Positions 15,587 through 64,000 of a stretch of DNA of 64,000 nt are shown here, in pieces. How positions within the stretch are numbered: position 1 is the stretch's first letter; each line of letters begins with the position of its first letter. The position numbers and the translations under genes were made by a program. The stretch covers positions 384,001-448,000 of the forward strand of contig CAWJTV010000005.1 of the NCBI GenBank assembly GCA_963845755.1, in the 5' to 3' direction. Under the pieces are notes generated by a model, which was not told where the DNA came from, searched no databases, and was given only the letters and a program-made list of their open reading frames with translations. The DNA comes from an uncultured Planctomycetota bacterium. Lineage in GTDB: Bacteria; Planctomycetota; Planctomycetia; Isosphaerales; Isosphaeraceae.

Positions 15587-16220
15587 TCAACTCGGGTCGC
15601 GGACGCCTTCTAACCCGACCTCGTGGACGACGGTCAGCCGCAGGAGTTCGATCAGTGAGCGGACCCCGAGCTTGCGCATAAGGCTCGATCGCCTCAGCTC
15701 GACGGCTCGGGGCGTGATCTGGAGCGAGCTCGCGATTTCCTTATTCGGCCGCCCCTCCTTGATCAATTCGAGGACCTCGCGCTCCTTGTCGGTCAGCCGG
15801 TCGAATCTCAGTGCCAGCTTCTCGCGATTGGCGATCCGGCCGCGGCGCTCGGTGTCGTTCTTGATCGCGCGCTGGACCTTGTCCAGGAGAGTCTGGCGAT
15901 TGAACGGCTTCTCGACGAATTCGACGGCACCGGACTTCATGGCCCGAACCGCCATCGTGACATCGGCATATGCCGTGATGAAGATGACGGGCATGCCTTC
16001 GCCACGCGCGACCAATTCTTCGAAGAGGTCGAGACCGCTTGTTCCCGGCATCCGCACGTCGAGGATCACGCAACCAGGCCCGTCCGGGGTGAAATCGCGG
16101 AGGAATTCGGCGGCTGAGGCGAATGTCTGCGGGGCGGAGCCCGACGGTCTTCATCAGCCAGCGCAGCGAGTCCCGCATGTCGGGGTCGTCATCCACGATG
16201 TAAACTGCTGACTGATCCAT
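15587..16220 (-). CDS. FixJ/LuxR-family response regulator, frameshift ~16135
   Basis: MDQSAVYIVDDDPDMRDSL..., then ILDVRMPGTSGLDL, AMKSGAVEFVEKPF and LTDKEREVL...NKEIA (LuxR HTH). Confidence 0.9.
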
Positions 16221-32018: not shown

Positions 32019-32347
32019 GCTGGCCTCCGCAATACAGACGGGAATCCAAAGACTCCCCGACTCATTATAAAATGATTGAAGGGGAAGCGGCTCGATAGCG
32101 GTCTCCAAAGACCATCCTGTCCGATTCAGTCGTCTCCTGTGATCAGTGCGGTCGGAAGACACCGCACGGTTCGCGGTCCGTCCTCGATGTATTCGAGTCC
32201 GCGTATCATCGCATAAGGATCGATGTGGCGACCGTCCTCCCGCTAGATTCTGTCCCCTCTTAACGTTAGGATATTCTGGCATTCGCCGTCCGGCAATCCC
32301 ATGAAGGACACGGTCTCATCTCGGGCTCGATTTCAGGAGAGTTCACC

Positions 32348-37524: not shown

Positions 37525-37788
37525 ATGGATGACACCCAGTACCGGGAGTTCTTCGCCCGGCCCACGCAGCCGTATCACCGCCGTTACGAGGCCCTCCGTG
37601 CCGTGTTCCTCGACGGCCGTTCGCAGAAGGAGGTCGCCGAGCAGTTCGGCTACCGCTACAGCGCGCTGCGGCAGTTGGTCTATGAGTTCCGACGGCACGG
37701 CCGAGACCCTGGTGATGCCTCCCCCTTTTTCGAGAGCGGAAGTGCGGGCGCCCAGCCGCGTCGAGCACCGTGGCGCCGTCGCGAGTGA
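37525..37788 (+). CDS. IS ORF A, helix-turn-helix protein
   Basis: YEALRAVFLDGRSQKEVAEQFGYRYSALRQL HTH; contains SPFF encoded by CCCCCTTTTTC. Confidence 0.75.
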   Translation: MDDTQYREFFARPTQPYHRRYEALRAVFLDGRSQKEVAEQFGYRYSALRQLVYEFRRHGRDPGDASPFFESGSAGAQPRRAPWRRRE

Positions 37789-47619: not shown

Positions 47620-49135
47620 ATGGTCGCACAGGCATCCCGCACCGAAATCCTTGTCCTGGCAGCCATCCCATGGACCCCCCGACCGCCCGATGCCAAACCC
47701 GAAGCGACCGGTCCAGAGACGCTAACGATAGCCTCTCAGGTTGGACTCCACCTCGGCGCCCTCAGGCTCCCCGAGATCGTGATGCAAGGCATCGCCCATA
47801 CGGCGCCTGCGACGGCCGTCCTGCTCACCCTGCCGTTCATCGCGTCCCACGCCGGCCTGGCCGCTCCCCTGGCCTACCTCATCGCCCTCCTGATCGTGCT
47901 GATGCTCGGCTTCGGGCTCTCGCAACTGGCCGGAGAAATGCCCTCCGCTGGGGGCTACTACACCTACGTGAGCCGGACCGTGGGCCCCCGCGCCGGTTTC
48001 CTGACCGCCTGGCTGTTCTTCCTCTATGCACCGACAACCCCGGCGTTCAGCCTGGCGATGATGGGCTGGGTGCTCGAGTCGGCCCTGAAGGCCGAGTATG
48101 GAATGTCGTTCCCGTGGTGGCTGTTCCTCATCCTCGGGGCGTCATTTACAACCTGGGCGACCTACCGCCGGATCGAGGTCTCGGCCGCGGCGCTGATGGC
48201 CCTTGGCTTTCTGGAAACGGGCATCGTCGTCCTGCTGGCCGGTTGGGGCCTGATCGCTCCCGGCCTGGGAGGCATCAGCCTCGCCTCGTTCAGCCCGGCG
48301 AGCGCGCCGAGCGGCAACGGACTCTACCTGGGCGTCATCTTCTCGCTCTTCGCCCTGACCGGCTGGGAGGGGGTCGTCCCGCTGGCCGAGGAGAGTGAGA
48401 ACCCCCGCCTCCTGCTGCCGCGAGCGATCGTGAGCACGATCGTAATCATGGGGGCTTACCTGGTCTTCACCTCGTGGGGAATCCTGATCGGCTGGGGTAC
48501 GGACGACCTCGGGGCTCTGGTCGCGTCCAAGGAGCTGCCCCCCTTCGTTCTGGCGCGGCGATTCTGGGGAGCCGGTTGGGTCGTCTTGTTGTTCGCTCTG
48601 CTCAACTCGATGATTGCGGTCTCCATCGCCAGCAGCCTCGTCTCGACCCGGATGTGGTACGCGATGGCGAGGTCCGGGGCGCGTACCGAAGTCGCTGGCG
48701 GCAATTCATCCCTGGCACAAGACGCCGGTCAACGCCGTGTCGTTCCAGGCGCTCGTGACCCTCATAGGCGGACTGGGGCTCGGCTACTGGGTCGGCCCGG
48801 ACCAAGTCTTCTACCTGATGGGAACAGTCTTGACCCTCGCACTGGCTCTCATCTACAGCGTCGGAAACCTCGGCGTGTTCCTCCATTATCGGAGGCATCG
48901 GGCCAGTTTTCGCGGGATCCCGCATGCGCTCTTCCCACTGATCTCAACACTCGCGGTCCTCTGGGTCGCCTACAAGTCGATCGTCCCACTCCCGCCTGGA
49001 CCACTGGCATATGCCCCCGCAATCGTCACCGTCTGGCTGCTCGCCGGTGTCACCGTCCTGATCGTCTCCAAGGGACTCGGTCGAGAGGATTGGCTGCTCG
49101 CAGCCGGGGCAGCCGCCCGTCAGACGGCGGAGTAG
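47620..49135 (+). CDS. APC-family amino acid permease, frameshift ~48680
   Basis: IAHTAP, PSAGGYYTYV, GWEG...LAEESENPR and STRMWYAMARSG, continuing in ORF 48614 as PKSLAAIHPWHKTP. Start position uncertain. Confidence 0.85.
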
Positions 49136-49723
49136 TCGCACGGCTGATCCTGTTCAGCTCGGCCCCTACAGGTGTTGACGATGGGCTAGGGCGGAGGCCG
49201 TCCATCCGACGTGGTAATCCAGAACTCCGGAGGAGAAATCCAGGAAGTGGCTCGCCCTTGTCCGGCTCATCGAAAGCGGGCGGACGAGATTTCACTGCCC
49301 CGCCATCCAGGACAGTCCGAGGAAACGTCTTTCACACAGGTCCTGACCCAACATTCGTGTACCGAGCGGCAAAGCAGCGAGCCCAAAGCTGTGCAGGTCA
49401 GACACCGTCACGGGCGGCACAGCCGCTGCGTTTGAACGCGGTTGAAACATAATCAAACGCATTATCGGACTCGCCGATGTCTGCCCAATACCCAACGCCA
49501 TGAGTGATCCGGCAGTCTCCTCCTCAGCCTGGCGTTCCACCGGACTTGCCCAAGGGCGATGGGATGACCGCTATCCCGATCCTGGCTGGTGTCTGCGCAA
49601 GCGACACTCCGCCGAGTCCTCCTGCTTAATTCCTCCGAAATTCAAGTTATAAATCAATGTGGATGGCATTAACCCTGCCAGGCCACACATCGCGATCCTT
49701 TTCTCACCATCGGAGGAATCATT

Positions 49724-50092
49724 TTGTCTCACATCGTGACCGTCAAGACCGAGGTCCGCGACCATGCCGCGGTCGCGGCGGCCTGCCGCCGGCTCGCACT
49801 GCCCGGGCCGGTCCAGGGCACCGCCCATCTTTACAGCGTCCATGTCGGCGGGCTGCTCGTCCACCTGCCCGACTGGCTCTACCCGGTCGTGATCGACACG
49901 GCCACGGGCAGCATCCGCTATGACAACTATGAAGGCTGCTGGGGCGACAAGAAGCATCTCCATCACTTTCTGCAAGCCTACGTCGTCGAGAGGTCTCTCA
50001 TCGAGGCCCGCAAGAAGAGCTACGTGACCACCGAGCAGTCCCTGGCCGACGGTTCCATCATGGTCGAGATCAAGGTGGGAGGCTCGGCATGA
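49724..50092 (+). CDS. DUF1257 (Ycf35-like) protein
   Basis: MSHIVTVKTEVRD..A...AC.RL, DNYEG.WG, FLQAY and EQSLADGSI; GGAGG RBS with TTG start. Confidence 0.75.
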   Translation: MSHIVTVKTEVRDHAAVAAACRRLALPGPVQGTAHLYSVHVGGLLVHLPDWLYPVVIDTATGSIRYDNYEGCWGDKKHLHHFLQAYVVERSLIEARKKSYVTTEQSLADGSIMVEIKVGGSA

Positions 50093-50283
50093 AGAAGATC
50101 ATCCGCGTGATCGTCGGCCCCAAGGGCGAGACGAGAGTTGAGACGAAGGGCTTCACGGGTGGTGAGTGCCGCGAGGCCAGCCGGTTCATCGAACAGGCCC
50201 TGGGTCAGCCGGTCAATGAGCAGCTCACGGCCGAGTTCTACCAGTCACAGGCCACCGACCAGCAGATCCAGCAGTCGCAGTGA
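50089..50283 (+). CDS. DUF2997 protein
   Basis: GETRVETKGFTGGECREASRFIEQALG...LTAEFY. Confidence 0.85.
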   Translation: MKKIIRVIVGPKGETRVETKGFTGGECREASRFIEQALGQPVNEQLTAEFYQSQATDQQIQQSQ

Positions 50284-50322
50284 TCTCGGCATCCCCCATG
50301 GTCTCGTTCGAGGAGATGCGCG

Positions 50323-50715
50323 ATGTTCGACACCTGCGAACAGACCCCCGAGTTTGCGCTGATCGAGGCCATTGCCGCGGCCCTGCGTGAGGAGTTGGGC
50401 ATTGAGATCGAGGACCAGCCCGGCTTCCACGATCCCTCCGAGGCCGGCGAGGTCAACAGGGCATTCCGGGTCATGGTCAAGACCATCCTCCGGAAATGCC
50501 TCCCACCGGGCGAGGATCTGCCGGTGTTCCCGAGCCGGGTCCTCGGGCGCCTCGCACGGCGACGGCTTGAAGCAGGTCTGCTCGACGCCCGCGAGGTCGA
50601 GCACCTGATCGGCCTGGAACTGGATGGCCGCGATGACTGGCTCGCCTCTCTGATCCTGACCGACTGGACTGAAATCGAGCATCTCCTGCAAACCCGCGGG
50701 CCCGACCATGATTGA
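50323..50715 (+). CDS. Hypothetical protein
   Basis: GAGGAG RBS, acidic 130-aa ORF in the operon orientation. Confidence 0.6.
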   Translation: MFDTCEQTPEFALIEAIAAALREELGIEIEDQPGFHDPSEAGEVNRAFRVMVKTILRKCLPPGEDLPVFPSRVLGRLARRRLEAGLLDAREVEHLIGLELDGRDDWLASLILTDWTEIEHLLQTRGPDHD

Positions 50716-50775
50716 TCCGGCCCCCTGACTGACCTCTTCCCCAACCCGATCCGACACCATCACGAGGAGGACCTC

Positions 50776-52268
50776 ATGACGCTTGCCGAGCGTTTGGCTG
50801 AGTTCGTGCGCACCGCCTTCACCGGCCTGTGGATCCAGTCGTTCGAGCACGACGACGCGATCGCCGAGATCGCCCGGCTCTGCCGCCAGCAACGCTGGGC
50901 GTTGGCGACCTGGGACATCGATCGCGGCCTTTCCATGGCCGGTCGGTCCGAGGATTCCGCCAGCGTCATCAATGCCACCGATCCGCTGGCCGCCATCCGC
51001 TCGCTGGGGGCGATGGCCAATCCCGACGGCACGTCGTTGCTCGTCCTTCGGAACTTCAACCGGTTCCTCAACAACATCGAGGTCGTCCAGGCCCTCGACT
51101 CGGCGATCTCCGCCGGCAAGACCGGGCGGACGTTCGTCGTCGTCCTCTCGCCCGTGGTCAACATCCCCGTCGAGCTAGAGCGGCAGTTCGTCGTGATCGA
51201 GCACGACCTGCCCGGCTGCGACCAGCTCGAGCGGATTGCCAGTGGCATCGCCACCGATCCCGGCGAGCTGCCCGAGGGCGATGCACTCACGGCCGTGCTG
51301 GATGCAGCGGCGGGCCTGACCCGCGTCGAGGCCGAGAATGCGCTCAGTCTGTCCCTGGTTCGGCATAACCGGATCACGCCGGATGTGCTCTGGGAGCTCA
51401 AGGGCCAGACGCTCAAGAAGAGCGGACTGCTGGCCTTGCATCGGGGCGGCGAAACCTTCGCCGACCTGAGCGGGCTGCAGGCCCTCAAGTCGTTCTGCAC
51501 TCGCCGCCCTGCGGCCGGGCCGACGCGCCGACGTCCAGGCTCGGGGCGTGCTCCTCCTGGGCCCTCCAGGGTCCGGCAAATCGGCCTGTGCCAAGGCTCT
51601 TGGCAACGAAACCGGCCGTCCCACCCTCTTGATGGACGTCGGCACGCTCATGGGTTCCTTGATCGGCCAGACCGAGGAACGGACGCGACAGGCCCTGAAG
51701 ATTGCCGACGCGATGGCGCCGTGCGTCATCATGATCGACGAGCTGGACAAGGCGCTCTCCGGCGTCGGCAGCACCGGCGACAGCGGCGTGTCCACCCGGA
51801 TGTTCGGGACGCTCCTGACCTACCTGAGCGACCACGACTCCGACGTCTTCATCGTCGCCTCGGCCAATGATATCTCGAAGCTGCCGCCCGAGTTCGCGCG
51901 CCGAGCGGTTCGACGGCGTCTTCTTCCTGGACCTGCCGGGCCAGAGCGAGCGGCAGACGATCTGGCAGATGTACATTCGCAAGTTCGGGCTCGATCCCGG
52001 CCAGCGCCTTCCCCAGGATCGCGAGTGGACCGGCGCGGAGATCCGATCGTGCTGTCGCCTGGCGGCCCAGCTGGACGTCCCATTGACCGAGGCCGCCTCG
52101 AACATCGTCCCGGTTGCGGTGACGGCCGGCGAGGCCGTGGAGAAGCTCCGGCAGTGGGCCAGCGGGCGGTGCCTGTCGGCCGAGCGGCCGGGGATCTACG
52201 CGCGCGAGGGCAACGGGATTCCCCAATCGGGGCGCAGCGTTCATCGCGGCGATCCCCGCGATAACTGA
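50776..52268 (+). CDS. Ycf46-like AAA+ ATPase (frameshifts ~51510 and ~51900)
   Basis: Degenerate N-terminal AAA domain (LLVLRNFNRFL), Walker A GPPGSGKS, Walker B IMIDELDK, ASANDISKLPPEF, RAERFD..FFLDLP and WTGAEI. Confidence 0.85.
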
Positions 52269-52407
52269 AGGGGAACGCCGGACGGGCGGATCGGTTCTGG
52301 GCACTGCCATGTGTCGTGCCTGGGATCGGTCGCTACGCGGCCACTCTGGAAGATGAAGCACTCGATCACCATCCCCTACCCACCACCGAACCACCGGAGA
52401 ACCTCGC

Positions 52408-52674
52408 TTGAGTATCCCCTACCGGATCGCCCTGGAGATCCCGGGTGAACCCCGGGAGGCCCCGACCACCGTCACGAGCTTCGAACAGGGCGTGGCGGCC
52501 TGCGTTGCTTATGCCCGTCAGCATCCGGGCGTCCCGGTGCGCATGTTCGTGCAGGTCGATGAGACGACCCTGTTCGATCATCATTACGCCGTGTTCGAGG
52601 TCAAGGTGCCGACGCTGGAGCCGTTCACGCGGGCCGGGATCCGGCGCCGGTTCGGCGAGGAGCCGCCGGTCTGA
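52408..52674 (+). CDS. Hypothetical protein
   Basis: GGAG RBS with TTG start; 88 aa. Confidence 0.55.
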   Translation: MSIPYRIALEIPGEPREAPTTVTSFEQGVAACVAYARQHPGVPVRMFVQVDETTLFDHHYAVFEVKVPTLEPFTRAGIRRRFGEEPPV

Positions 52675-52752
52675 GCCGGGATGCCGGTCCCCGTGGTCCG
52701 GCGGGAGAATTCCACTCCCGACCCGGACCGGCTCGACTTTCAGGAAACCCTC

Positions 52753-53229
52753 ATGAGAAACCCATCCGAGCTGTCGCGTGCGGAGCTCGAATCGATCGCC
52801 GAGCAGATCCGGGACATCCTCTGGCGCGACCACCGCACCAACGAGCTTGATCCGGACAAGGAATGGAACATCGAGACGATCGAGTACGTCTCGGGCGTGC
52901 TCGAGGATGCCGGGCTCAAGCCTGGGGCCCCGGCGGTACTCCAGGCCGATTCCGGACCTGTTGCGGCCGATGCTTCCGCCGAATCGACCAGTCATGAGCC
53001 GGCCCGTGATGATCACGAGACATCGCCGGTGGCCGCGATGCGGTCTGCCCTGGACGCCATCATCGACACGATCGAGGCCAGTGGTGGCGGCATCCGCGGC
53101 GAGGACGGACTGCTGTCGCCGGAGGGTGATCCCGACTGGATCGACCTGGGCGAAGCCTACGTCCTGGCCTGCACCGCGATCGGCCGAACTCCCCTGATCA
53201 TCGAGACAGGGGAGAGCGAACAAGCCTGA
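52753..53229 (+). CDS. Hypothetical acidic protein, apparently two small domains
   Basis: LDPDKEW..ETIEYVSGVL domain, a linker, then a DPDWIDLGEAY domain. Confidence 0.6.
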   Translation: MRNPSELSRAELESIAEQIRDILWRDHRTNELDPDKEWNIETIEYVSGVLEDAGLKPGAPAVLQADSGPVAADASAESTSHEPARDDHETSPVAAMRSALDAIIDTIEASGGGIRGEDGLLSPEGDPDWIDLGEAYVLACTAIGRTPLIIETGESEQA

Positions 53230-53294
53230 TGTCTTGCGGCGTGCGGAAGGAAGCGTTTCGGCATTCGAATCACCGACTCTCTTGAAGGAGAACC

Positions 53295-53735
53295 ATGCTC
53301 GTCATCCATCCCGAGAGCCACGTCAACCACGTCTCGGCGTGCCTCATCGAGGCCGCGACGTTGAGGTTCGCTGAGGTGACCAACCCCGACCGGCGGATCA
53401 TCATCGAGACCTTCGAACTGCCGGAAGAGGCAGGGACGGTCGCGTGTGCCTTGTACGGCCCGGCCCTGGGCGATCCGTCGCTGTGCGAGGACGAGGTCCA
53501 GTACCGGGTCCGCCCCGGACGCTCCTGGCCCAGCCGGACGGTGGCTCGCCCGGTCCGCCAGACCCGGACCCTGACCGTAATCGCCGGACCGAACAGCGGC
53601 GAGGACCTGGTCCTGTTCACCTGCCATGGCGGGCCGGCGGCCCCGCCGGAAGTCAATGATCCCAACCTCGAGCCGGCCGATCGGGCGGCGTCGCTCGCGT
53701 TCTGGAACGACCACGCCCTGGCCCTGGAGGCATGA
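53295..53735 (+). CDS. Hypothetical phage-like protein
   Basis: AAGGAG RBS; CALYGP..GD, RSWPSR, LFTCHGGPAAPPE and FWNDHAL. Confidence 0.65.
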   Translation: MLVIHPESHVNHVSACLIEAATLRFAEVTNPDRRIIIETFELPEEAGTVACALYGPALGDPSLCEDEVQYRVRPGRSWPSRTVARPVRQTRTLTVIAGPNSGEDLVLFTCHGGPAAPPEVNDPNLEPADRAASLAFWNDHALALEA

Positions 53736-54314
53736 TCGCGATGAAGACCGCGGCGGAACTCTGCGAGGGCTTGCTCTCCTGCGCCGGGCAACACGGCGAC
53801 GCCGAGGGCAGCGAGGTGCAGCTCGGCGATATCGAGGACTTCTTCCGCGCCGCGTTCGATCGGCTCACACCGGAGCAACTCGGCCGGTTCTGGGACGATC
53901 CTCGAGTCGCCGGGACCGTCCGGGAGATCCCGGAATACGAGGAACTGGCAGGAGAGGTCTATTACCGTGACCGGCCATCGGAGCCGACGGTCCGGGAGGC
54001 CAGCGATTTCCTGCCCCACACCAGGCCCGAGGCCGATCGGTCCACCGATCCAGTCGCGGATGATCAGAGGATCCCCGTGACCTTCACTCACGTCGAACAG
54101 GATGGCGACAAGACCTACCGGGCCGGCGGCCTCTATCTGAGCCTGGGAGGCGGCCCGGGCATCGGCCACGTGGCCATGCGCAGTCGATCCCGGCGGCCGG
54201 AAATGGGCGACCACTTACTATGCAGCCGCGGGCTGGCTCGTCGCCCAGGGCCTGCCGCACGACCGCGCCGCCTACCTGGTCGCCTGCGCGATCCAGACGC
54301 GCGACCAAACCTGA
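53732..54314 (+). CDS. Hypothetical protein, probable frameshift ~54180
   Basis: ATGA overlap; an alternative frame continues AVDPGGRKWATTYYAAAGWLVAQG to TGA at 54314. Confidence 0.5.
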
Positions 54315-54338
54315 CCCTCGCCACGAAAGGGAAACCTG

Positions 54339-54583
54339 ATGGCCAGACGCCCGCAACTCCGCTGCTCGCGCTGCGGGGAGCGGGAGGACTTCTTCGTCCG
54401 GATCAGCTCGCTGGTCACGCTGATCCGCGACGCCAATTCGGCCGATGGCCTCTCGATCGACATCTCCGAGAAGACGCCGCCGATTTCGACTGGATCGCGC
54501 TCCATTGCGGGCGATGCGGCCACGAAGGGCCGCAGGAGGAGTTCGAGATCAGGCCAGTCGCGAGAGTGGCCACAGGGTCTTGA
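54339..54583 (+). CDS. Small Zn-ribbon protein, probable frameshift ~54480
   Basis: LRCSRCG in one frame pairs with LHCGRCGHEG in the next. Confidence 0.55.
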
Positions 54584-55014
54584 GACGATCGCGACGCGGG
54601 TCCAGGAAATCATCGGCCCTGAGTCGTCCTGGCCACGGCGGGGCGCGCGATCTCGTGCGGGGATTCACCGGTGTTTCCCACGGCACCGAGGCGCCGGCCC
54701 CGGCCCTGGCCGAAGTTGATTAACGTTAATGGATCTCGAGGACCGGAGACACCTCGCCGCGAGGATCGCCTCGATGCTGCCCGAGCAATGGCGTGCACGG
54801 GTCCACCCGGTGTCGTCAGACTCACTCTTCCGGGGCCGTTCCCGCGACCAGAGAAAGTTCCAGGACGATCGCATCGCTGTGGCCATCCGACCCGACGCAC
54901 CGGCCTGGACCGAGGACAACCGCGGCGACGTCCTTGGGACGTCGTGCGCTCGGCGCATCCGAGACGGTCGCCCTTCGCTCCGTTCTGAAATGCATTCGAG
55001 AGAGGAGGTGAGAC

Positions 55015-55227
55015 TTGGCCGCTGTCTGGCTCAAGGTGCGGATCGACGTCGTCTTGGTCGGGCCGGAACGCGAAGTATCGGGGCCGGAAGCGACGGCGGC
55101 GGCCCGGGAGGCGGTCTGCAATGCCCTCCAGGCCGCCCAGGAAGCGGGCTTCGATCACGATCGGGCCGATGATCTTTCCCTGACGGTCAACTACGTCGAG
55201 GTAGCCGACTTCGATGCGACGGTCTGA
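55015..55227 (+). CDS. Hypothetical protein
   Basis: GAGGAGGT RBS with TTG start; 70 aa. Confidence 0.6.
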   Translation: MAAVWLKVRIDVVLVGPEREVSGPEATAAAREAVCNALQAAQEAGFDHDRADDLSLTVNYVEVADFDATV

Positions 55228-55270
55228 TTGCCCGATCCCGATTTACCCCGAGTCGAACAGGAGGCCGAAG

Positions 55271-55693
55271 TTGACCGATTGGTATTCGCTGTCCGGCCGC
55301 GTCCTGCTCCGCCAGTGTCCCGAGGCCGGCGCGATCGTCGCGCAGCTCCGGGACCTCTGCCAGGACGGGCTCGGCATCATCACGAAGGAGTTGAGCAGCA
55401 ATCAGATGGAATTGACCGTCCAGGGCCACGCCGAGCTGGCCGAGGCCACCGTGCGGGAGATCGAGCGGCTGCTCGAATCGCTCGGCCCCTTCGCGCTGGA
55501 CGCGGAGGTCTTCGAGAAGCAGTTCAATCACCTCCCGCGCGCGGTGGTCGTGGTCCGGCCGGGCGATGACGGGCGGGTCCTGCTGAGCGGTTATCGGATG
55601 GGGCAGATCCAGGATCTGATCGCGGACCTGGTCCCGGATCACCGCGCCTGGCTCATCGACCTGCTCCGGGAGCCGAAAGACCAGAGGGCCTGA
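55271..55693 (+). CDS. Hypothetical protein (paralog A)
   Basis: AGGAGG RBS with TTG start; aligns by eye with 56366..56782. Confidence 0.65.
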   Translation: MTDWYSLSGRVLLRQCPEAGAIVAQLRDLCQDGLGIITKELSSNQMELTVQGHAELAEATVREIERLLESLGPFALDAEVFEKQFNHLPRAVVVVRPGDDGRVLLSGYRMGQIQDLIADLVPDHRAWLIDLLREPKDQRA

Positions 55694-55796
55694 GCACCCG
55701 CCGTGGGCCGGCCGGCACCGCACGCCTCGCCTGCCGATGGCGTGCTGGCTTGCCGGCCGCTCCTGGCAGGACCGGCTCACGAGTCGGAGAACCCCC

Positions 55797-56285
55797 ATGA
55801 TCGACGTGCCTTACGTGCTGGTGGGAAAGCAGATCCCCCGTCACGCGGTCCCCGAGGGTCGTGAAGTCCATCCGGCTCCGTGCATCTTCTGCGGCGCGCC
55901 GATCGAGCACGTGGATGACGGCGGGATCGGCCGGCTGCTCGGTGCACGGGTCGACGGCGAATCGTGGGTTTACCTGTACTGCAATTCGGGTCCGTGCGCC
56001 CAGAGATCGGCGCCGTGGATCTGGCGGTGCGGGTGCGTCCCGGATTACGCCGAGAACGTCCGCGGTCATTGCTACCAGTGCCGGAAACCCCGGCATGAGG
56101 CGGAGCCGTACGATCGGGTCGAGTGCCCCGTCTGCGGCGAGGCGCACCGCCTCGACGACCGCCTGGGGATCGGCAACGGGAGGTGCCGGTCGTGCACCGC
56201 CGGGCCGGCCTACCTGCCGGTCCTTCACGAGACTCCCGAGTGGACGCCGTTGCGGGCGCTGCGGGGCGGTGTCCATGGCGAATGA
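55797..56285 (+). CDS. Cys-rich multi-zinc-finger protein
   Basis: CIFC, CNSGPC, CGC, CYQC, CPVC and CRSC motifs; GGAG RBS. Confidence 0.65.
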   Translation: MIDVPYVLVGKQIPRHAVPEGREVHPAPCIFCGAPIEHVDDGGIGRLLGARVDGESWVYLYCNSGPCAQRSAPWIWRCGCVPDYAENVRGHCYQCRKPRHEAEPYDRVECPVCGEAHRLDDRLGIGNGRCRSCTAGPAYLPVLHETPEWTPLRALRGGVHGE

Positions 56286-56365
56286 GATCGAGCGAGCGTG
56301 GTCCGGTCCTGGAGGACCAGGCCGGGCTGTCGGAGGAATCCCGCCAATTCCGCGAAGGTGAGAAA

Positions 56366-56782
56366 TCGAGCGCATTCTACGAGGTCTACGGCACGATCCG
56401 CGTTCGAACCGGCGCGAAAGCGAAAGCGATCGTCGCCCGGCTCAGGGACTTTCCCCAGTACGGCATCGAGATCGACAGCGACGAGTGCGAGCCGGGTGTC
56501 GTGTCCATCTCGCTCGAGGGCGGGAGTTCCTTTGCGGCCGGTGAAGTCCTCGACTTCGACAAGCTGCTCCAGTCGCTCGGCTCCCATGTCGTGGAGCCGG
56601 CGGTCCTGGACACCGAGTACGAAGGCGAAGACGGGGAGCTGGTCGTCGCCCGCTCCGACGCCGAGTCGGCAGAGACGCTCAGCCGGCATCGATTGGAGCA
56701 GATCGACATCCTGCTGCGCGATGTCACGCCGGAGGATCGGACGAAGCTGGCCGATAAGCTCCGATCTCTCCCGGCTCAGTAA
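56366..56782 (+). CDS. Hypothetical protein (paralog B), start codon uncertain
   Basis: SAFYEVYGTIRVR...AIVARLRD...LLQSLG...LSRHRLEQI parallels paralog A. Confidence 0.6.
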   Translation, partial: SSAFYEVYGTIRVRTGAKAKAIVARLRDFPQYGIEIDSDECEPGVVSISLEGGSSFAAGEVLDFDKLLQSLGSHVVEPAVLDTEYEGEDGELVVARSDAESAETLSRHRLEQIDILLRDVTPEDRTKLADKLRSLPAQ

Positions 56783-57000
56783 ACCATCCCTGTTGACCAT
56801 GATCCCTCGGGCTTGAGTAACGATTGCTCATGGTTCCGGGGCGGATTCCTGCGGTCCGTTCCACGTAGTCCATCCGACCAGACCCCTGATCGGCCCATCC
56901 ATTCGGCAGGGCCGGTCGAGGTCCGCATTCATCCCGCTTACGAACGGTTCTATCACGGACCGTTCCCGGCGGGGGCGGTCCCAGCATCAAGGAGACCGCC

Positions 57001-57615
57001 ATGTCCATCGCATCATTGAACGACGCCCGGCGCGAGTTCACGGCCCACCTCCCGGCCGTCGAGAACGCCACCCGCTTCGCCTTCCGGCGCCGGCGGCTGA
57101 GGCGCCAGGATTACGAGGACGTCCTGGCCGAGGCCGTCGCCGCCTGCTGGAGCGCCTGGGTCGGACTGATCTCCCGCGGCCGGGACCCGCTGTAGGTCGG
57201 CGTCTCCGGCATCGCCAACTACGCCATCCGCTACGTCCGGAACGGCCGCCGGATCGCCAACCGGTCAGGCGGCCGGGGGGCCATGGACGTCTATCACAAG
57301 AAGGCCCAGAAGGTTCTTGGTTTCCGGGTCATCAACTCCGGCGGCGACGAGACTGTCAACGAGGAGGACGCGGGGATTTGGACCAACTGCTGCACCCCGG
57401 CAGACGAGGCGTGCTTTCGCGTCAACTACGCGGCGTGGCTCGAGGCCCTGGCCCCGCGACGACGGACGACGGCCGAGCTGCTGGCGGCGGGGCACGGGAC
57501 GCTCGAGGTGGCGCAGCAAGTGGGCGTGACCCCGGCCGCGATCAGCCAGGCGCGGTCCTGGTTACACCAGAACTGGCGACGGTTCCAGGGCGACGGGCCG
57601 GCGGCGTGCGGGTGA
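57001..57615 (+). pseudogene. Sigma-70-like/HTH regulator with in-frame TAG at 57193-57195
   Basis: One frame across the stop: region-2-like EDVLAEAVAACW, then TPADEACFRVNYAAWLEALAPRRR...EVAQQVGVTPAAISQAR (region-4-like HTH). Confidence 0.7.
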
Positions 57616-57744
57616 AGAGTTGCTGGGTTCTCGCAGCAGTCCGCATCCCTGTTCGTACCCTTGTCTCAGCACTCGCGAGCGGCCGGACCCTGGTCGCCCG
57701 GAAAGCGTGATTCGTTGTCTTGATCCCGTTCCCTCGGAGGTGAA

Positions 57745-58734
57745 ATGCCCACCTTGCTTGACCACCTTGATACCGATCCCGTTTCGAGCCACGGCGTCGC
57801 CGTCACGACCAGTGCGGCCCAGCGGCTGCGCACGACCATGGCCGCCTGCCGCGTCTCGTTTACCTGGTGGGGCGTCCAACGCACGCTGACGTCCGAGCAG
57901 AAGGCCCAGGCCGCGCAGGCGTTCGACGCCGAGGGCGAGTTCCTCTCCGCCGGCAAGAAGTTGCTCGACACGAAACACACGGCGTTCCGAGCCGTGACGG
58001 CCATCCGCATCAGGATCGGCGATTACTGGAAGGGCCTCTCGCTCCCATTCCCGGAGTCCGGAGTCCGACTCATCAAACTGGAAAGCGTGGAGGAGTTCGA
58101 CCGCCAGATGGCCGACTATCGCGCCGAACTGGACGACGCGGTCGCCAATCTCGATCGCCATTTCGAGGAGCTGAAGCAGGCGGCGGCCCGCCGGTTGGGC
58201 TCGCTCTACAATCCGTCGGATTACCCGGAGACGCTGATCGGCCTCTTCGGCGTCTCCTACGACTTCCCCTCGATCGAGCCGCCGGATTACCTGGTCCAGC
58301 TCTCGCCCGGGCTCTACGAACGCGAGCAGGAGCGGGTCCGGGCCCGGTTCGAAGAGGCGGTTCGGCTGGCCGAGCAGGCGTTCGTCAACGAGTTCGCCCG
58401 CCTGGTCAACCATCTCACGGAGCGAATCTCGGGCACCAACGAAGACGGGACGCCGAAGGTGTTTCGCGACACCGTCGTGGGCAATCTCGACGACTTCTTC
58501 GAGCGTTTTCGCTCGTTGAACGTCCGGTCCAATCAGCAGCTCGACGACCTGGTGGCCCAGGCCCAGCGGGCCGTACGAAATGTCGGCGCGCAGGACCTGC
58601 GCGACAGCGAGGCAATCCGGAGCCAGGTGGCCACCCAGCTCTCTCGGGTTCAGTCGTCGCTCGACGCCATGCTGGTTGACCGGCCGCGGCGGCGGATCCT
58701 CCGCAACACGCCGAACTCGGAGTCTGAATCGTGA
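57745..58734 (+). CDS. DUF3150-like helical protein
   Basis: RVSFTWWG, AGKKLLD, SLPFPESGVRLI, RLGSLYNPSDYP and coiled-coil character; GGAGGT RBS. The family call is from memory of the motif pattern. Confidence 0.6.
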   Translation: MPTLLDHLDTDPVSSHGVAVTTSAAQRLRTTMAACRVSFTWWGVQRTLTSEQKAQAAQAFDAEGEFLSAGKKLLDTKHTAFRAVTAIRIRIGDYWKGLSLPFPESGVRLIKLESVEEFDRQMADYRAELDDAVANLDRHFEELKQAAARRLGSLYNPSDYPETLIGLFGVSYDFPSIEPPDYLVQLSPGLYEREQERVRARFEEAVRLAEQAFVNEFARLVNHLTERISGTNEDGTPKVFRDTVVGNLDDFFERFRSLNVRSNQQLDDLVAQAQRAVRNVGAQDLRDSEAIRSQVATQLSRVQSSLDAMLVDRPRRRILRNTPNSESES

Positions 58735-58976
58735 AACTGCTCGTCAAACCCGACGGGACGGTCCTGGCGATCTACGACGAGATGATCGATCTCAGCGTGC
58801 TGGGCCGTCCTACGATCACCCGGGCCAGCCAGGTCGAGCCCGACGAGCAGGGGCGCTGGCGGGCCGACCTGACGCCGGTGGGTGGACCCGTGCTCGGTCC
58901 ATTCGATCGCCGCAGCCAGGCCCTGGACGCCGAGCACGACTGGCTGGAACGCAACTGGCTGAACGGCTCCGTCTGA
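58731..58976 (+). CDS. Small hypothetical protein
   Basis: GTGA overlap with the upstream gene; IYDEMIDL..LG..TITRASQVEP...W.ADL.PVGGPVLGPF..RS.AL.AE..WL. Confidence 0.75.
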   Translation: MKLLVKPDGTVLAIYDEMIDLSVLGRPTITRASQVEPDEQGRWRADLTPVGGPVLGPFDRRSQALDAEHDWLERNWLNGSV

Positions 58977-59156
58977 AACCCTGCTCTTCTTCGTTCGACC
59001 TTCCCGCGGCCGGCATCCGGCCGTCTTTTCCTTCACTACCCTCGACATCACCCCGCGCCCGGACCCGCAGTGCTCCTCATCCCGGCGCACCCTGGCCGCG
59101 AGGTGGGTGCGCCGCCGAGATGCGGGGCACCAGGCCGGCTCGGGAGGAGTAACACC

Positions 59157-59471
59157 ATGACCCGGACCCAGCTTAATTGTTCGATCGCCGCGCGTACCGG
59201 CGAACCGCTTTCCGTCATCCGCCGCCTCGGATTTCGCCTCCTGGTCGAGCCGAGTGAGGAGCCCGTCGCCGAGGAGATCCGCCTGGTCGTCCACTGCCCG
59301 TTCTGCAGCGGCCAGGTGCCGTATCCCGGCCAATCCCGCGACGGCTCGAACGCCCTGGCCGAGTGCCACGGCTGCGATGTCTATTTCGAGTTCGAGGACC
59401 GCGACGTCTTCCCGGCCAGCTCGCGGGCGGCCGTGACCTCGCTGTCTCGTCGCCGTTACATCCCCGCCTGA
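59157..59471 (+). CDS. Small protein with N-terminal helical motif and C-terminal Zn ribbon
   Basis: GGAGGAG RBS; IAARTGEPLSVIRRLGF, then CPFC...CHGC. Confidence 0.7.
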   Translation: MTRTQLNCSIAARTGEPLSVIRRLGFRLLVEPSEEPVAEEIRLVVHCPFCSGQVPYPGQSRDGSNALAECHGCDVYFEFEDRDVFPASSRAAVTSLSRRRYIPA

Positions 59472-59547
59472 CCGCCAACGCATCCGCTCCTTGGCCGTAG
59501 CCCGAATCGTTCACTGGCCCGATTCACCGAAACAGGAGTCTTCCTGA

Positions 59548-61026
59548 ATGATCACCTTGACCCGAAACCAGGTCCGGCGGCTCCGTGTCGCCTTCCGCCG
59601 GGCGGCCCTGGGCATCACCCATCGGGGGACCGTCTCCGAGCTTGTGCTCCGCGCCGAAGGGAGTCAACTACGGGCGCAATATCGGTACTGCGACCTGGCA
59701 ATCGAGCACGTCGAGCCGGGTAGCTACCGGCCGGCCATGAGCCTCGCCATCCCGCTCGATGCCCTGGCCGACTTCGAGGGCTCAGCCGACTCGCCCGTCG
59801 TCCTCGAGTCGGTCGGCCCCGATCGGACCGTCGTCCGCTGGGAAGATCGGGGCATTCCCCAGAGCCGCGAGTACAACCTCGTGACGCCCGTCGATCGCGT
59901 GGAGCCGATGCCGGCGTCACCCGCGACCTGGGCATCGAATCCGGCCGACTTGCTGGACGCCCTGGCGGTGGCGACCGAGATCGGCCTCCCCGACTCGCCG
60001 CGCTACTCCTTGGAGTGTATCCAGCTTCAGGGGAACCACGGCAAGCTCCTGGCCACGGACGGCCGGCAGGGCCTGGTTCGCTCGGGCTATACGTTCCCCT
60101 GGTCTGACAACCTCCTGATCAAGGGTCGCCCAATCTTCGGCTGCCGGGCGATCCCTCACGATCAGCCGGTCGAGGTCGGAAAGACCGACACCCATGTCGT
60201 GATCCGCGCCGGGGCCTGGACGATCTACTCCGAGATCCAGAAGGAAGCGCGGTTCCCCGACCTGCAGCGGGTGATTCCCACCGACGGTGAGGTCTCGACC
60301 CGGCTGCGGCTGGACCCGGCGGACGCGCGGTTCCTCGAATCCGCCCTGGACCGCCTGCCCGGCGGCGACGAACTGAACAGCCCGGTAACCCTGGAATTGA
60401 ACGGCCGGATTGCCGTCCGGGCCAGCGCTGCCGACCAGACCGAGCAGGTGATGGAGCTGATCCTCAGCCGGTCGAGTTATTCCGGCTCGCCGCTCTGTAT
60501 CGCGACGAATCGCGTCTTGCTCGATCGGGCTCTCCGGTTGGGCTTCACGGAAGTCGGCTTCGCGGGAGTCGATTCGCCGTTCGTCTGCCGCGCTGAAGGG
60601 AAGATGTTCACGGTCCAACCCCTGAGCGGCGGGTCGCCGCTCGACGGGAACGCGCACGTGACGCGGATCGAGTCGAGCGCGGCGACCGGCGCCGCGAGTC
60701 GTGTCCCAACCCGCAACGAGAGCACGAGGAGACCGATGTCGGAATCCGCCGGGAGAAATGGCCACGCGACACGGGCCGCCGAAACCCATGGCCACATGGC
60801 GGCGACACGGGCCGAGACGACGAGTCCCTCCGGCGCCGAGCCGCCCGGCACCAACCTGGCCGCCCTGATCCAGGAGGCCGAGTCCCTGCACGCTGCACTG
60901 GCCGACGCGAAATCCCGAACGAGCCACCTGATCGCCGGCCTGCGGCGCCAGCGCAACCAGTCTCGGCTGGTCAGCGAAACCCTCAGATCGCTCCGCGAGC
61001 TGAAGCTCCAGGATGTCGTCGCCTGA
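59548..61026 (+). CDS. DNA polymerase III beta-clamp (DnaN)-like protein with C-terminal coiled coil
   Basis: [18 protein letters not shown] and [12 protein letters not shown] parallel the DnaN motifs VATDGHRL, FPDYxRVIP and IxFNxxYLLDAL. Confidence 0.55.
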
Positions 61027-61127
61027 CCAGACATCTCGAGACACCAGGCCGGCGTGCCACGGGCTCGATTAACGTTAGGCCGAATCGCCGGCCCGGTCCC
61101 ATCCCTGTCATGAAGGAGGCCCACACC

Positions 61128-61610
61128 GTGTCCTTGAAGTTGAACGTCGGGGTCTCGCGCAAGGTCGGCCAGCCGGATTACGGCTCGGTCGGCGCCTCGT
61201 GCCACCTCGAGCTGGAGATCGACACCGGCCTGCTGGATCGCGACCTGGATGCCTTCCATGCCCGGGTCCGTTGCGCATACGTCGCCGCCCATCAGGCCGT
61301 CCACGACGAACTGGCCCGCTTGAACTCGCCGGTTGCGGCGCCGCAAAACGCGCCGGCTTCACCGCCCCGCCAGACGACCCATGGCCACGCCAACGGCAAC
61401 GGTCGCACCGACCCTCCGCCGGCCGGGCGATCCCGAACTCGCAAGCCGGCGACCGAGAACCAAATCCGGGCGATTCGCTCCATCGCGACCCGGCAGCATG
61501 CCGACCTTGAGGGCTTGCTGCAGGAGTTCGGAGTCGATCGGCCGGAGGATCTGAGCCTGCCCCAGGCCAGCCGGCTGATCGACACCCTCAAGGCGGCAAG
61601 CCAGATCTGA
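61128..61610 (+). CDS. Hypothetical two-domain protein
   Basis: [33 protein letters not shown] domain, a disordered linker, then ATENQIRAI...[14 protein letters not shown]. Confidence 0.75.
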
Positions 61611-61672
61611 GCAGCCGTCGGTAAGCGTCGAGGACAACCCGGAATGACCATCCATCGAATGGAGGACCTGAC

Positions 61673-62267
61673 ATGGGCTTGACGGTCGCCGAGAAGACCC
61701 ACTGGCGAGACCGGATCGAGGCCAAGATCAACCGTCGGATCGAGGGGATCCTGACTGGCGATCCCGGCCTGCTGGACCGGATCAAGCTCTCGGCTCGAGG
61801 GCGCACCCTGGCCTCGCTGGGACTGGCCGAGTTCCAATCGGAACTGGACCAGATCGCCGCCCAGAAGGAGGTGCTCGCCCGGCGCGAGCGGCGTGCCCAG
61901 CGCGCCATGCTCGCTCGGGTGCGCGGCGTCGAGATCGACCAGATCGAAGAAGTCTATTACGGCCGACACGAGACCGAGGTCACCAGGGCGGTTTCCCAGC
62001 GGCAGGCGGTTCACGAGGACGAGTTGCTGGCCGAACACGAGGTCGGCCGCCGGATTCTCCAGCTCCGCGCCGAGAAGGATCGTTTGCTCGACACGGTCTG
62101 GCTGGCCTGTTCTCCGGCCCAGATCCGCCAGCTCTGGAGCAAGGTCGGCGAGTTGCTCGGCGACGAGCCGACCCAGCTCGAGCGCGAGGCGCTGGGTCGG
62201 CGACGAGCCGACCCAGCTCGAGCGCGAGGCGCTGGCGATCCCGCCGGCCGGCGAGGAGGGCGGATGA
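61673..62267 (+). CDS. Coiled-coil hypothetical protein; 3' end frameshifted by a 40-bp tandem duplication
   Basis: GGAGG RBS; removing one repeat copy gives ...GDEPTQLEREALAIPPAGEEGG and a stop at 62267. Confidence 0.7.
62157..62235 (+). repeat. Tandem duplication with 40-bp period
   Basis: TCGGCGACGAGCCGACCCAGCTCGAGCGCGAGGCGCTGG at 62157-62195 and 62197-62235. Confidence 0.95.
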
Positions 62268-62593
62268 GCCGACCCTATCCGAATCGTCGTCGGAAGCGTC
62301 CGGGCCGGCGTCCGCCGCATCGCTATCGTGGTGGCAAGCCGCCGGTCCGGCCGAACAGCTTCATGGACTTCGGCCTGAGACAAGTCTACGACCTGATATT
62401 CCCGACCATTCGCGGACGAGATCGGAAGACGTTTTTCAATCAGGCCAGTACGGGGTCTGTCGTGGCCATGGGATTCATAGCCGCGTTCATGGGGTACGAG
62501 GGAGCCGGTCTCCCCGGTGCGATCCTCGGCGGCGTCGCGGCGATGGCGCTGTCGGACCACGCGCTCCGCAAGCATCGTTTCTACCGTCCCTGA
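62264..62593 (+). CDS. Small membrane protein with Arg/Pro-rich N-terminus and Gly-rich hairpin
   Basis: GAGGAGG RBS with ATGA overlap; two hydrophobic Gly/Ala-rich segments. Confidence 0.65.
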   Translation: MSRPYPNRRRKRPGRRPPHRYRGGKPPVRPNSFMDFGLRQVYDLIFPTIRGRDRKTFFNQASTGSVVAMGFIAAFMGYEGAGLPGAILGGVAAMALSDHALRKHRFYRP

Positions 62594-62615
62594 GGCGACT
62601 CCCATCAACCAGACT

Positions 62616-62658
62616 GGCTGGCCACGGCTACGGCCGTGGCCAGCCTGCTCTCTTTCTT
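62616..62658 (+). terminator. Probable intrinsic terminator closing the module
   Basis: Perfect 13-bp stem GGCTGGCCACGGC/GCCGTGGCCAGCC with a TACG loop, then TGCTCTCTTTCTT. Confidence 0.7.
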
Positions 62659-62975
62659 AGCCCTCGAGGAAAACTTCGAACCGGACGAGCGATCGGAGCC
62701 CTGTCCATGTTGGCCAACCGGCCTGTCCCGTGCCTCGCGTCAGCCTGCGTAGACGTCCCGGTGCCCGTGAGGACTCCAAAGCTGCCGGGTTCATAACTCA
62801 TCGTCGATTGCTGGGGGTCATCTGGACCGAGAGAATCCGTGCCACTGGCCTGCAGGCGGTAGCTCCCGAGCACCGAGTCATCCTCGAACGACGAAGGGAA
62901 GAACGGCGACATGCTAGTCGGCCCATGAATTGCGAGGATTGCTTTCGAAAGACCTCGAAGAGAAAGGGTTGATCG

Positions 62976-64000
62976 ATGAGAGCACTCTGCTGGCACGGCA
63001 AGTCGGACGTCCGCGTCGATACCGTCCCCGATCCCAAGATCGAGGACCCGCGCGACGTCATCGTGAAGATCACCTCCACCGCGATTTGCGGCTCCGATCT
63101 CCATCTATATGACGGCTACATGCCGACGATGGAGCCCGGGGATGTCCTCGGGCATGAACCGATGGGAGAGGTGGTCGAGGTCGGCTCCGCGATCACAGAA
63201 TTCCGGAACGGCGATCGGATCGTCGTCCCGTTCACGATCTCCTGCGGGGCCTGCTGGTTCTACGAGAATCAACTTTTCTCGTTGTGCGATAACTCGAACC
63301 CCAACGACGAGATGGCCCGCAAGGTGATGGGCCAGTCCCCCGCCGGCCTGCTCGGCTATTCGCACTTGCTCGGCGGATTCGCCGGAGGCCAGGCGGAGTA
63401 CCTCCGCGTCCCGTACGCCGACGTGGGTCCGATCAAGATCCCCGACGGCATTCCCGACGAGAAGGTCCTGTTCCTTTCCGATATCTTCCCGACCGGATAC
63501 ATGGGGGCCGAGAACGCCGGCATCGAAAAAGGTGATACCGTGGCCGTCTGGGGCTGCGGGCCGGTAGGCCAGTTCGCCATCCTCGAGCGCCTGGATGCTC
63601 GGGGCCGGGCGGGTCGTTGCCATCGACCGCGTCACGGAACGACTGGCGATGGCCGAGAAATATGGCAAGGTCGAGACGATCCACTTCGACAAGGAGAAGG
63701 TCTACGACCGACTGATGGAAATGACCAAGGGCCGCGGCCCCGATCGCTGCATCGACGCCGTCGGTGCCGAGGCCCACGGCACCGGTTCATGGGATGCCAT
63801 GCTCGACAAGGCGAAGACCTCGGTCGGGCTGGCCACCGACCGCGCGCACGTGCTCCGCGAAGCGATCCTGTGCTGCCGGAAGGGTGGGACCATCTCCATC
63901 CCCGGCGTTTACATCGGCTTTCCCGACAAGCTCCCGATGGGGGCCGCGATGAACAAGGGGCTGGCTTTCAAGATGGGCCAGACCCACGTTCCCAAGTATC
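62976..64000 (+). CDS. Zn-dependent alcohol/formaldehyde dehydrogenase (YbdR-like), partial, frameshift ~63583
   Basis: Own translation: [14 protein letters not shown]...[13 protein letters not shown]...LGHEPMGEV...ISCGACWFY...LSDIFPTG...VWGCGPVG. Confidence 0.9.

Follow-up and report, generated by a model that had tools for sequence, protein, structure and literature searches.

The 64,000-nucleotide stretch of planctomycete DNA analyzed here (the window), which comes from an uncultured member of the Isosphaeraceae (contig CAWJTV010000005.1, positions 384,001 to 448,000), carries a 13-kb run of about 21 co-directional genes (49724-62593, all gene calls on the + strand) that brings together an AAA+ ATPase, probably of the Ycf46 type, small proteins of the DUF1257 and DUF2997 types, a DUF3150-fold protein, and a divergent homologue of the beta sliding clamp. 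An initial annotation, made from the letters of the window and its open reading frames (ORFs), had described about 20 genes in one direction, and the coding signature supports this layout, the G+C content of the real frames being 0.72-0.94 at codon position 3 as compared with 0.40-0.56 at position 2. The genes, numbered here g1 to g20, fall into a front block (g1, 49724-50092; g2, 50089-50283; g3, 50323-50715; and the AAA+ gene g4, 50776-52268), a variable slot (g5-g13, 52408-57615), and a back block (g14-g20, 57745-62593). Parts of the cluster are known domain families of unknown function. Together, the comparisons described below demonstrate that the co-directional cluster is conserved and under selection, that it changes sites and replicons, and that a five-gene core, made up of the AAA+, DUF1257, DUF2997, and DUF3150 genes and a small partner gene, crosses phyla, whereas the clamp homologue, g16, g18, and g19 were found only in the planctomycete loci.

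The 23 translated pieces of the cluster were searched against Pfam, PHROGs, and PADLOC-DB v2. The first gene, g1, has a TTG start, with GGAGG at 49712-49716, and encodes 122 amino acids that had been labelled DUF1257, a label that stands as kinship but falls as formal membership. The protein gives no Pfam match at E≤10 and lies outside the gathering rule of DUF1257 (PF06868), whereas BLASTP aligns it over its full length with a Manganitrophus plasmid protein annotated as DUF1257 (27% identity, E=2e-7), which itself reaches 19.2 bits against the PF06868 cut-off of 22.2, and PF06868 is carried by 6 of the 120 listed g1 homologues (60-64% identical). Because homologues match DUF1257 while the PF06868 model fails, the evidence supports g1 as a divergent, Ycf35-like relative of DUF1257 rather than a member by the Pfam rule. 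Its AlphaFold2 model has a predicted local distance difference test score (pLDDT) of 90 and finds no fold match in the PDB by Foldseek (best E 0.03), and a PDB sequence-profile search with g1, g14, and g18 gave E=0.75 at best. The start of g2 overlaps the stop of g1, and its 64-amino acid product belongs to DUF2997 (PF11211), with E=9.6e-17 and 61 bits against a cut-off of 24.1 over model positions 1-47 of 47. Next comes g3, an orphan of 130 amino acids without a family match in the domain libraries, which is part of only some of the related loci introduced below (L001, L002, L010, and L011 by tblastn).

The reading frame of the AAA+ gene g4 switches near 51500 and again near 51900, so that the gene lies in three pieces. 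Its middle piece matches PF00004 (E=1.1e-23, 84.6 bits against a cut-off of 21.2) and its frame-2 piece holds the Walker A motif GPPGSGKS, so that this is a classical AAA protein encoded by a gene that is broken in the window copy; the DUF2997 and AAA labels of the initial annotation both pass Pfam in this way. The three pieces are collinear on phrog_8638 (21-284, 306-416, and 426-545 of 568), a phage AAA+ family of unknown function. In the intact homologue of locus L011, the AAA domain occupies residues 252-440 and is of the Cdc48/p97/AFG2 type (E=5e-37 against the PDB), with the D2 domain of Cdc48/p97 and AFG2 as its closest PDB relatives, which on sequence grounds places it in the protein-unfolding clade and not in the clamp-loader clade. 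The N-domain of the same homologue (residues 1-245) has a "ycf46 family" cluster as a structural neighbor in the Atlas, at a template modeling (TM) score of 0.88, and also lies structurally near cyanobacterial AAA proteins in Atlas clusters. The Atlas tool gives no alignment and reports no E-value, and the Ycf46 match is therefore a lead; as a lead, it favors the kinship with Ycf46 and Ycf35 that had been proposed for the cluster.

The most conserved gene of the cluster is g14 (57745-58734, 329 amino acids), which has more than 5083 matches in a set of 5.8 billion proteins, the top 120 being 70-95% identical, and whose family comprises 6162 clusters at 50% identity. The DUF3150 label given to it fails in Pfam, since the window protein has no match at E≤10 and 0 of 46 family members match PF11348 at E≤0.01; its homologues and its fold, on the other hand, speak for the label. 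By tblastn, g14 is related to a Manganitrophus plasmid protein (29.5% identity, E=4e-31) that scores 35.3 bits against the PF11348 cut-off of 24.9, and the AlphaFold2 model (pLDDT 91, predicted TM score 0.82) matches a phage protein named DUF3150 by Foldseek (E=8e-16, TM 0.71-0.79). Sequence and model thus support g14 as a sister family of Pfam DUF3150 that would share its fold. Against the PDB, the best Foldseek value of the model is E 0.14, with no solved relative. A tblastn search of 50,697 phage records with g14 gave no match, and a weak match of the fold to a protein of phage Dylan in BFVD (E=3e-3, TM 0.29) is a lead only. The next gene, g15 (58731-58976), starts within the stop of g14, with an overlap of 4 nucleotides, and encodes the partner of 81 amino acids that had been noted as coupled; it is 53% identical to an 84-amino acid gene product encoded 3' of DUF3150 on a Manganitrophus plasmid (hhalign E=1e-29). 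A Corndog-type mycobacteriophage gene pair beside an AAA-ATPase was rejected as a counterpart, the g14 and g15 profiles giving an hhalign probability of 0.3% against Firecracker gp99 and gp98.

Farther downstream, the zinc ribbon, clamp-like gene, two further proteins, and small hydrophobic protein of the initial annotation are all present. The zinc-ribbon gene g16 (59070-59471; CPFC...CHGC), whose true start may be an ATG near 59154, shows a sub-threshold Lar-like match (E=0.0097). It is followed by g17 (59548-61026), encoding 492 amino acids, for which clamp likeness could be raised to homology. When a profile of 10 sequences was compared with the PDB, 26 of 26 matches were beta clamps, the best (E=4.8e-8) aligning residues 128-341 with 129-344, in clamp domains II-III, and one match only covers all three clamp domains (27-349, E=0.016); phrog_947, a processivity factor, is matched at E=0.0037. 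The profile evidence identifies g17 as a true but divergent beta-clamp homologue. It differs from DnaN in matching no Pfam clamp model, a property of its whole, small family (0 of 387 clusters with a Pfam domain), in having an extra C-terminal tail of about 140 amino acids, composed of a low-complexity stretch and then a conserved helical end, and in having no clamp-loader-type AAA+ nearby. Searched against the plasmid collection, g17 gave no match. The product of g18 (61110-61610, 166 amino acids) consists of a conserved N-domain, a disordered linker, and a C-terminal motif, the last 40 residues giving sub-threshold matches to DUF3072 (E=9.1e-5) and to GemA (E=1.4e-4). The helical protein encoded by g19 (61673 to about 62262, about 195 amino acids) holds a 39-nucleotide repeat (62157-62235) in the window and is intact in L011 (13740-14306, 189 amino acids). 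Finally, g20 (62264-62593, 109 amino acids), with a basic N-terminus and a hydrophobic stretch, likely encodes a small membrane protein, and weak homologues lie 3' of g19 in L002, L003, L005, L009, L010, and L011.

Between the AAA+ gene and g14 lies a slot of small orphans that includes two Cys-rich/zinc-ribbon genes (54339-54583 and 55737-56285), the paralogues g10 (55214-55693) and g12 (about 56318-56782), and an ECF (extracytoplasmic function)-sigma-like gene, g13 (57001-57615), with an in-frame TAG at 57193. The variable cargo slot that had been suspected here is borne out, its length being about 0.1 kb in six loci (L010, L011, L012, L015, L016, and L018) and 5.4 kb in the window, and in the remaining loci its content differs, with small genes partly shuffled; parts of the window slot are shuffled with respect to L013. 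A 61-nucleotide repeat is common to g6 (52681-53229), g10 (55214-55693), and g12 (56318-56782), and the window g6 corresponds to the N-part of one L013 gene joined to the C-part of the next (L013 1213-2391). The modular build of these genes indicates that the slot evolves by shuffling. The label "sigma-like" of g13 has sub-threshold matches only, the window pieces reaching HTH_23 in Pfam at E=0.048 and the intact homologue in L007 reaching Sigma70_r2 at E=0.0017 (18.5 bits against 24), with no match of that homologue in the PDB.

The cluster has recognizable ends. In an alignment of the 300 nucleotides upstream of g1 (12 sequences), a promoter-like block (CTTAATTC...ATAAAT, 49625-49654, + strand) is common to the window, L001, L002, L005, L008, and L020, with no conservation upstream of it. 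Because similarity between loci starts at this block, about 100 nucleotides 5' of g1, we take it as the left boundary; it was not called by a consensus promoter scanner. On the right, the terminator noted in the initial annotation is an intrinsic one (62616-62645, feature span to 62655, + strand), with a stem of 13 bp, 11 of them GC pairs, and a T-rich tail. Another terminator-like hairpin (59006-59024, 8 pairs, T-rich tail) stands in the gap between g15 and g16 and may make expression of the clamp block partly independent of the g14-g15 pair. An AT-rich palindrome, TTAACGTTAA or TTAACGTTAG, occurs at three sites in the window as compared with 0.11 expected by chance, namely at 54720-54729, abutting the start of g9, at 61069-61078, in the spacer between g17 and g18, and at 32260-32269, outside the cluster; its 9-mer is also found directly 5' of the clamp gene in two relatives (L014 11758-11767 and L020 11738-11746), and the palindrome might act as an operator or as part of a promoter. 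No tRNA was found in the window and no Rfam family in 48500-63500.

Species-representative genomes were scanned with an alignment of g14, and because the peptide patterns reach close relatives only, the 22 loci found (named here L001 and so on) are a lower bound. All are from Planctomycetota, and they include the chromosome of Singulisphaera acidiphila DSM 18658 and plasmid pP12_2 of Tundrisphaera lichenicola. Presence was counted by tblastn of the window genes, with denominators restricted to loci whose contig extends to the expected gene position; six-frame all-versus-all clustering was discarded because out-of-frame GC-rich ORFs chained together, and alignment rows with an internal stop were removed (L012 for g1 and L020 for g18). 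The recurring order is g1-g2-AAA+-[variable slot]-g14-g15-zinc ribbon-clamp-g18. The initial annotation had made its proposal depend on the genes occurring together in other genomes, and this they do: 17 of 20 loci have the AAA+ gene 5' of g14 (the exceptions are L003, L007, and L021), g1 and g2 are present in 13 of 13, g15 follows g14 in 22 of 22, and g16, g17, and g18 are found in 17 of 22, 16 of 21, and 16 of 19 loci, respectively. The ratio of nonsynonymous to synonymous substitution rates (dN/dS) of the core genes against five relatives is 0.12-0.66, lowest for g14 (0.16-0.28), g2, and the AAA+ gene, values that are rough because synonymous sites are probably saturated and biased; at this resolution, they point to purifying selection on the core. 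In the L012 locus, a type I restriction-modification system and a PIN gene (1-6115) immediately precede the operon, and g15 is separated from g16 by an insertion that encodes a PNPOx-like protein, an ECF sigma factor, and a Ser/Thr kinase (11876-15608).

Six or more genes of the window copy are broken, the AAA+ gene among them, a feature that the initial annotation had overlooked. The two frame changes of g4 are single-base insertions or deletions relative to L001, the exact base of the second being unreliable, as the net frame arithmetic of the global alignment does not fit, and the gene is intact in L001, L008, L011, L012, and L013. Moreover, comparison with intact L013 genes reveals frameshifts in both g8 and the zinc-ribbon gene at 54339, g9 has a probable frame change near 54900 (from the frame plot only), g13 carries its in-frame TAG, and in g19 two exact 39-nucleotide copies, whose starts are 40 nucleotides apart with one base between them, shift the frame and fuse the gene to g20. 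With no recombinase nearby, such damage could mark the window copy as the decaying pseudogene remnant of a once-active element that is now inactive. Housekeeping genes of the window are, however, split likewise, among them a nirB-like gene (three overlapping ORFs) and a molybdopterin nitrate reductase gene (two), both within 8163-15162, and so are the flanking amino acid permease (47620-49452) and zinc-dependent alcohol dehydrogenase (62976-63998) genes, a pattern that suggests an assembly rich in insertions and deletions throughout the window; the same type of break recurs at other loci on long contigs of metagenome-assembled genomes (L001, in g1, L002, and L019), and the high identity of the window genes to intact relatives and dN/dS values below 1 also speak against decay. 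Because the housekeeping genes are split in the same way, assembly noise is a simpler explanation than decay; the breaks are most likely assembly errors, and we regard an inactive remnant as quite improbable. For the repeat at 62157-62235, a genuine mutation and an artefact of assembly are both conceivable.

The proposal that the genes belong to a planctomycete mobile element gains support from the flanks of the loci. The flanking genes are different at each locus, the window permease and alcohol dehydrogenase having no convincing recurrence elsewhere; two copies of the cluster reside in one metagenome-assembled genome (L001 and L003), one is on a plasmid, pP12_2, with ParB on the 5' side of the cluster, and in L001 and L010 the cluster is adjoined by large serine recombinases that share about 50% identity. 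At the latter locus (S. acidiphila NC_019892, 4353-7687), g1 is split into an N-part (4353-4625) and a C-part that runs into g2 (7580-7687), with an extra full g1 (4734-5093) and the serine recombinase on the opposite strand (5119-7251) between them, an arrangement suggesting that an insertion carrying the recombinase targets g1 or duplicates it. As to the kind of element, 0 of the 23 cluster pieces match integrase, capsid, terminase, relaxase, or type IV secretion system (T4SS) families in Pfam and PHROGs, in agreement with what had been noted by eye. A prophage was rejected, the same searches having found no capsid, portal, terminase, tail, or lysis gene among these pieces, as was an integrative and conjugative element (ICE) or other conjugative region, there being no relaxase, coupling protein, T4SS, or integrase in the cluster or in 30 larger ORFs of the window. 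Nor did the Pfam, PHROGs, PADLOC, and phage-record searches map the cluster onto a characterized prophage or ICE, an outcome that the initial annotation had named as one that would refute its proposal.

Outside the planctomycetes, the closest counterpart is a cassette on plasmids of Candidatus Manganitrophus (CP114559, CP114554, and CP114562), where all five core genes are adjacent in the order AAA-DUF1257-DUF2997-DUF3150-84-amino acid gene. In contrast to the window, the order is permuted, with the AAA gene first, and the cassette, which is known from annotation only, is without clamp, zinc ribbon, g18, g19, and slot; its neighbors are RadC/JAB, primase, UvrD helicase, Fic, ParB, and PRTRC genes. 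The Rhizobium phage vB_RleS_L338C carries the trio as gp050-gp053, in the order AAA-x-DUF1257-DUF2997, in a genome of virulent type and 2.7 kb from DnaB and PolA; its AAA+ protein (phrog_8638) is 27% identical over 95% of the length, and its DUF1257 and DUF2997 proteins match at E=4.8e-9 and E=2.5e-5, respectively. When gp051 and gp055 of this phage were tested as g14-like or clamp-like proteins, no relationship was detectable. Relatives of g14 (22-28% identity) are also encoded on 48 plasmid records, mostly from Burkholderiaceae, of which 24 are conjugative, 10 mobilizable, and 14 non-mobilizable. On plasmids of Burkholderiaceae, Simplicispira, and Rhodovastum, the DUF3150-like gene belongs to a triplet with an AAA_5 (MoxR-like) gene and a DUF2201 metallopeptidase/VWA gene, often beside T4SS and PRTRC genes, and is thus tied to an AAA+ protein, as in the window. 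At all three proteobacterial plasmid loci inspected, the g14 relative is directly 5' of the DUF2201/VWA-like gene, and the MoxR-like gene is an immediate neighbor in Burkholderia and Rhodovastum and lies 3.6 kb farther upstream in Simplicispira. Unlike the window, the triplet uses another AAA+ clade, has a VWA/metallopeptidase gene in place of DUF1257 and DUF2997, and lacks a small partner. Because the g14 relatives sit near another kind of AAA+ protein, DUF3150-type proteins appear to be linked to AAA+ machines in general. A MoxR-VWA chaperone pair was rejected as a model for the window, whose AAA+ protein is of the PF00004 type and whose cluster contains no VWA or DUF2201 gene. The initial annotation had offered a stand-alone AAA+ remodelling system as one option; this is doubtful, since in other phyla both the AAA+ trio and the DUF3150 pair accompany genes for the replication or maintenance of plasmids and phages.

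The Ycf46, Ycf35, and DUF2997 proteins of cyanobacteria and plastids would be the same three protein types as g4, g1, and g2, and g4 also appears to share the build of Ycf46, an N-domain of about 250 amino acids followed by a single classical AAA domain. Ycf46 and Ycf35 affect CO2 use. Conservation of Ycf46, Ycf35 (DUF1257), and DUF2997 extends over cyanobacteria and plastids, and to our knowledge no biochemistry has been described for them. The literature on DUF1257, DUF2997, DUF3150, Ycf46, and Ycf35 that we found mentions them at the level of gene lists and annotations only, one bioRxiv preprint noting both DUF1257 and DUF2997 as unexplained, and full-text literature searches, with subscription journals outside their coverage, found no description of the cassette. 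These likenesses invite an explanation in which the window genes are a vertically inherited cellular system of the host, a planctomycete counterpart of the cyanobacterial trio with a physiological role. A chromosomal DUF2997-ycf35-fed7 cluster of cyanobacteria, listed in PMC4284462, fits such an origin, as do the AAA+ N-domain, closest to cyanobacterial and "ycf46 family" clusters, the G+C content, which equals that of the flanks, and the absence of a recombinase from the window. The distribution of the cluster is hard to reconcile with vertical descent, however, since at least 22 loci among species representatives occupy different sites, two of them in one metagenome-assembled genome and one on a plasmid, and homologues are borne by phages and plasmids. 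In contrast to the cyanobacterial cluster, the window trio is contiguous and tied on mobile DNA to DUF3150, a clamp, and a variable slot, without a ferredoxin gene. A cellular system is in our view a decidedly unlikely origin.

We tentatively read the cluster as a conserved accessory operon of planctomycete mobile DNA, whether plasmid or integrated, that probably serves replication or establishment of the element, and we put the probability of this reading at about 0.4. The operon would then have three layers. The first would be the Ycf46-type AAA+ protein, of the hexameric unfolding or segregating kind, with DUF1257 and DUF2997 as small partners; the second would be the DUF3150-fold protein with its translationally coupled 81-amino acid partner, the slot between these two layers gathering fast-changing small genes; and the third would comprise the zinc ribbon, a private beta-clamp homologue with a helical tail, the GemA/DUF3072-tailed g18, the helical protein, and the small membrane protein. 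The conserved promoter-like block 5' of g1 may drive transcription as far as the terminator that follows g20. On element DNA, the clamp homologue could assemble with g18 and the g14-g15 pair, and the AAA+ machine, steered by its small partners, with DUF1257 and DUF2997 as adaptors or clients, could remodel or recycle this assembly, so that the operon would serve element replication or establishment and not host metabolism. The private clamp, the replication or partition neighbors in three unrelated elements, and the repeated pairing of DUF3150 with AAA+ proteins are all consistent with such a role.

Several observations weigh against this reading. The putative role in replication or establishment is deduced solely from the clamp and from neighbors in distant elements, and the window cluster itself lacks genes for a replication initiator, a primase, a helicase, a partition ATPase, or a recombinase. 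Neither origin-like repeats nor att repeats were found, and no convincing flanking direct repeats or att sites lie around 49.4-49.7 kb and 62.6-63.0 kb. A recombinase is present in just two of the six loci whose ORFs were scanned, and when the L001 and L010 serine recombinases were used as tblastn queries, neither the remaining loci nor the 64-kb window yielded a copy. The G+C content of the cluster is equal to that of its flanks. In addition, the window copy may be partly dead, because a repeat with a 40-nucleotide period and an in-frame TAG are atypical of single-base read errors.

A different role, in anti-phage defence or in an anti-defence or establishment system, with the AAA+ protein as sensor or remodeller, the small proteins as adaptors, and the slot supplying specificity or effector genes, would account for the fast turnover of the slot. 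It would also suit the type I restriction-modification system and PIN gene just upstream in L012 and the distant plasmid homologues that sit amid Fic, RadC/JAB, ParB, DNA methyltransferase, and PRTRC genes, neighbors of the "leading-region" type. The AAA piece furthermore resembles IetA/IteA (E ~1e-14), and IetAS and SgiAT are described in PMC10954446 as plasmid stability pairs whose AAA+ antitoxins belong to the SpoVK/Ycf46/Vps4 group, the same broad group as g4. This resemblance is generic, however. In PADLOC-DB v2, only the middle AAA+ piece matches, and does so to models as diverse as IetA, TRIP13, and JetC; beyond such AAA matches, 0 of the 23 pieces match a PADLOC model, and the NCBIfam IteA score is 51 bits, far under the family cut-off of 510. 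No subtilisin-like (S8) protease partner of the IetAS/SgiAT kind accompanies g4, the cluster pieces contain no protease, nuclease, toxin, or other effector domain, and none of the matched PADLOC models includes a sliding clamp. Defence is accordingly an unlikely function for the cluster.

Beyond the accessory operon itself, a wider proposal can be made, which we find possible but rather doubtful, namely that the Ycf46-type AAA+ protein with DUF1257, DUF2997, DUF3150, and the small partner is a previously unrecognized machine of mobile DNA, related to ycf46 and ycf35 and spread over at least three phyla in phages, plasmids, and integrated elements, which recruited a clamp of its own in planctomycetes. 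If this is true, it would be a new element-encoded apparatus for replication, establishment, or counter-defence and could give ycf46 and ycf35 a biochemical function. The contiguous trio on phages, plasmids, and the planctomycete operon, together with the DUF3150-fold protein, provides concrete candidate partners for Ycf46 and Ycf35, and the signature proteins g1 and g14 have confident models without a solved structural relative. For the Isosphaeraceae, PMC12603096 reports that the core elements of plasmid replication still await identification and that ten plasmids were found to carry no phage genes; a clamp-bearing operon on such a plasmid is a candidate for these replication functions. Elsewhere in the window, about 11-14 kb upstream of the cluster, a DDE transposase fragment (35913-36644) and a well-coding ORF of 470 amino acids without a Pfam match (37716-39125) lie amid sugar-acid metabolism genes.

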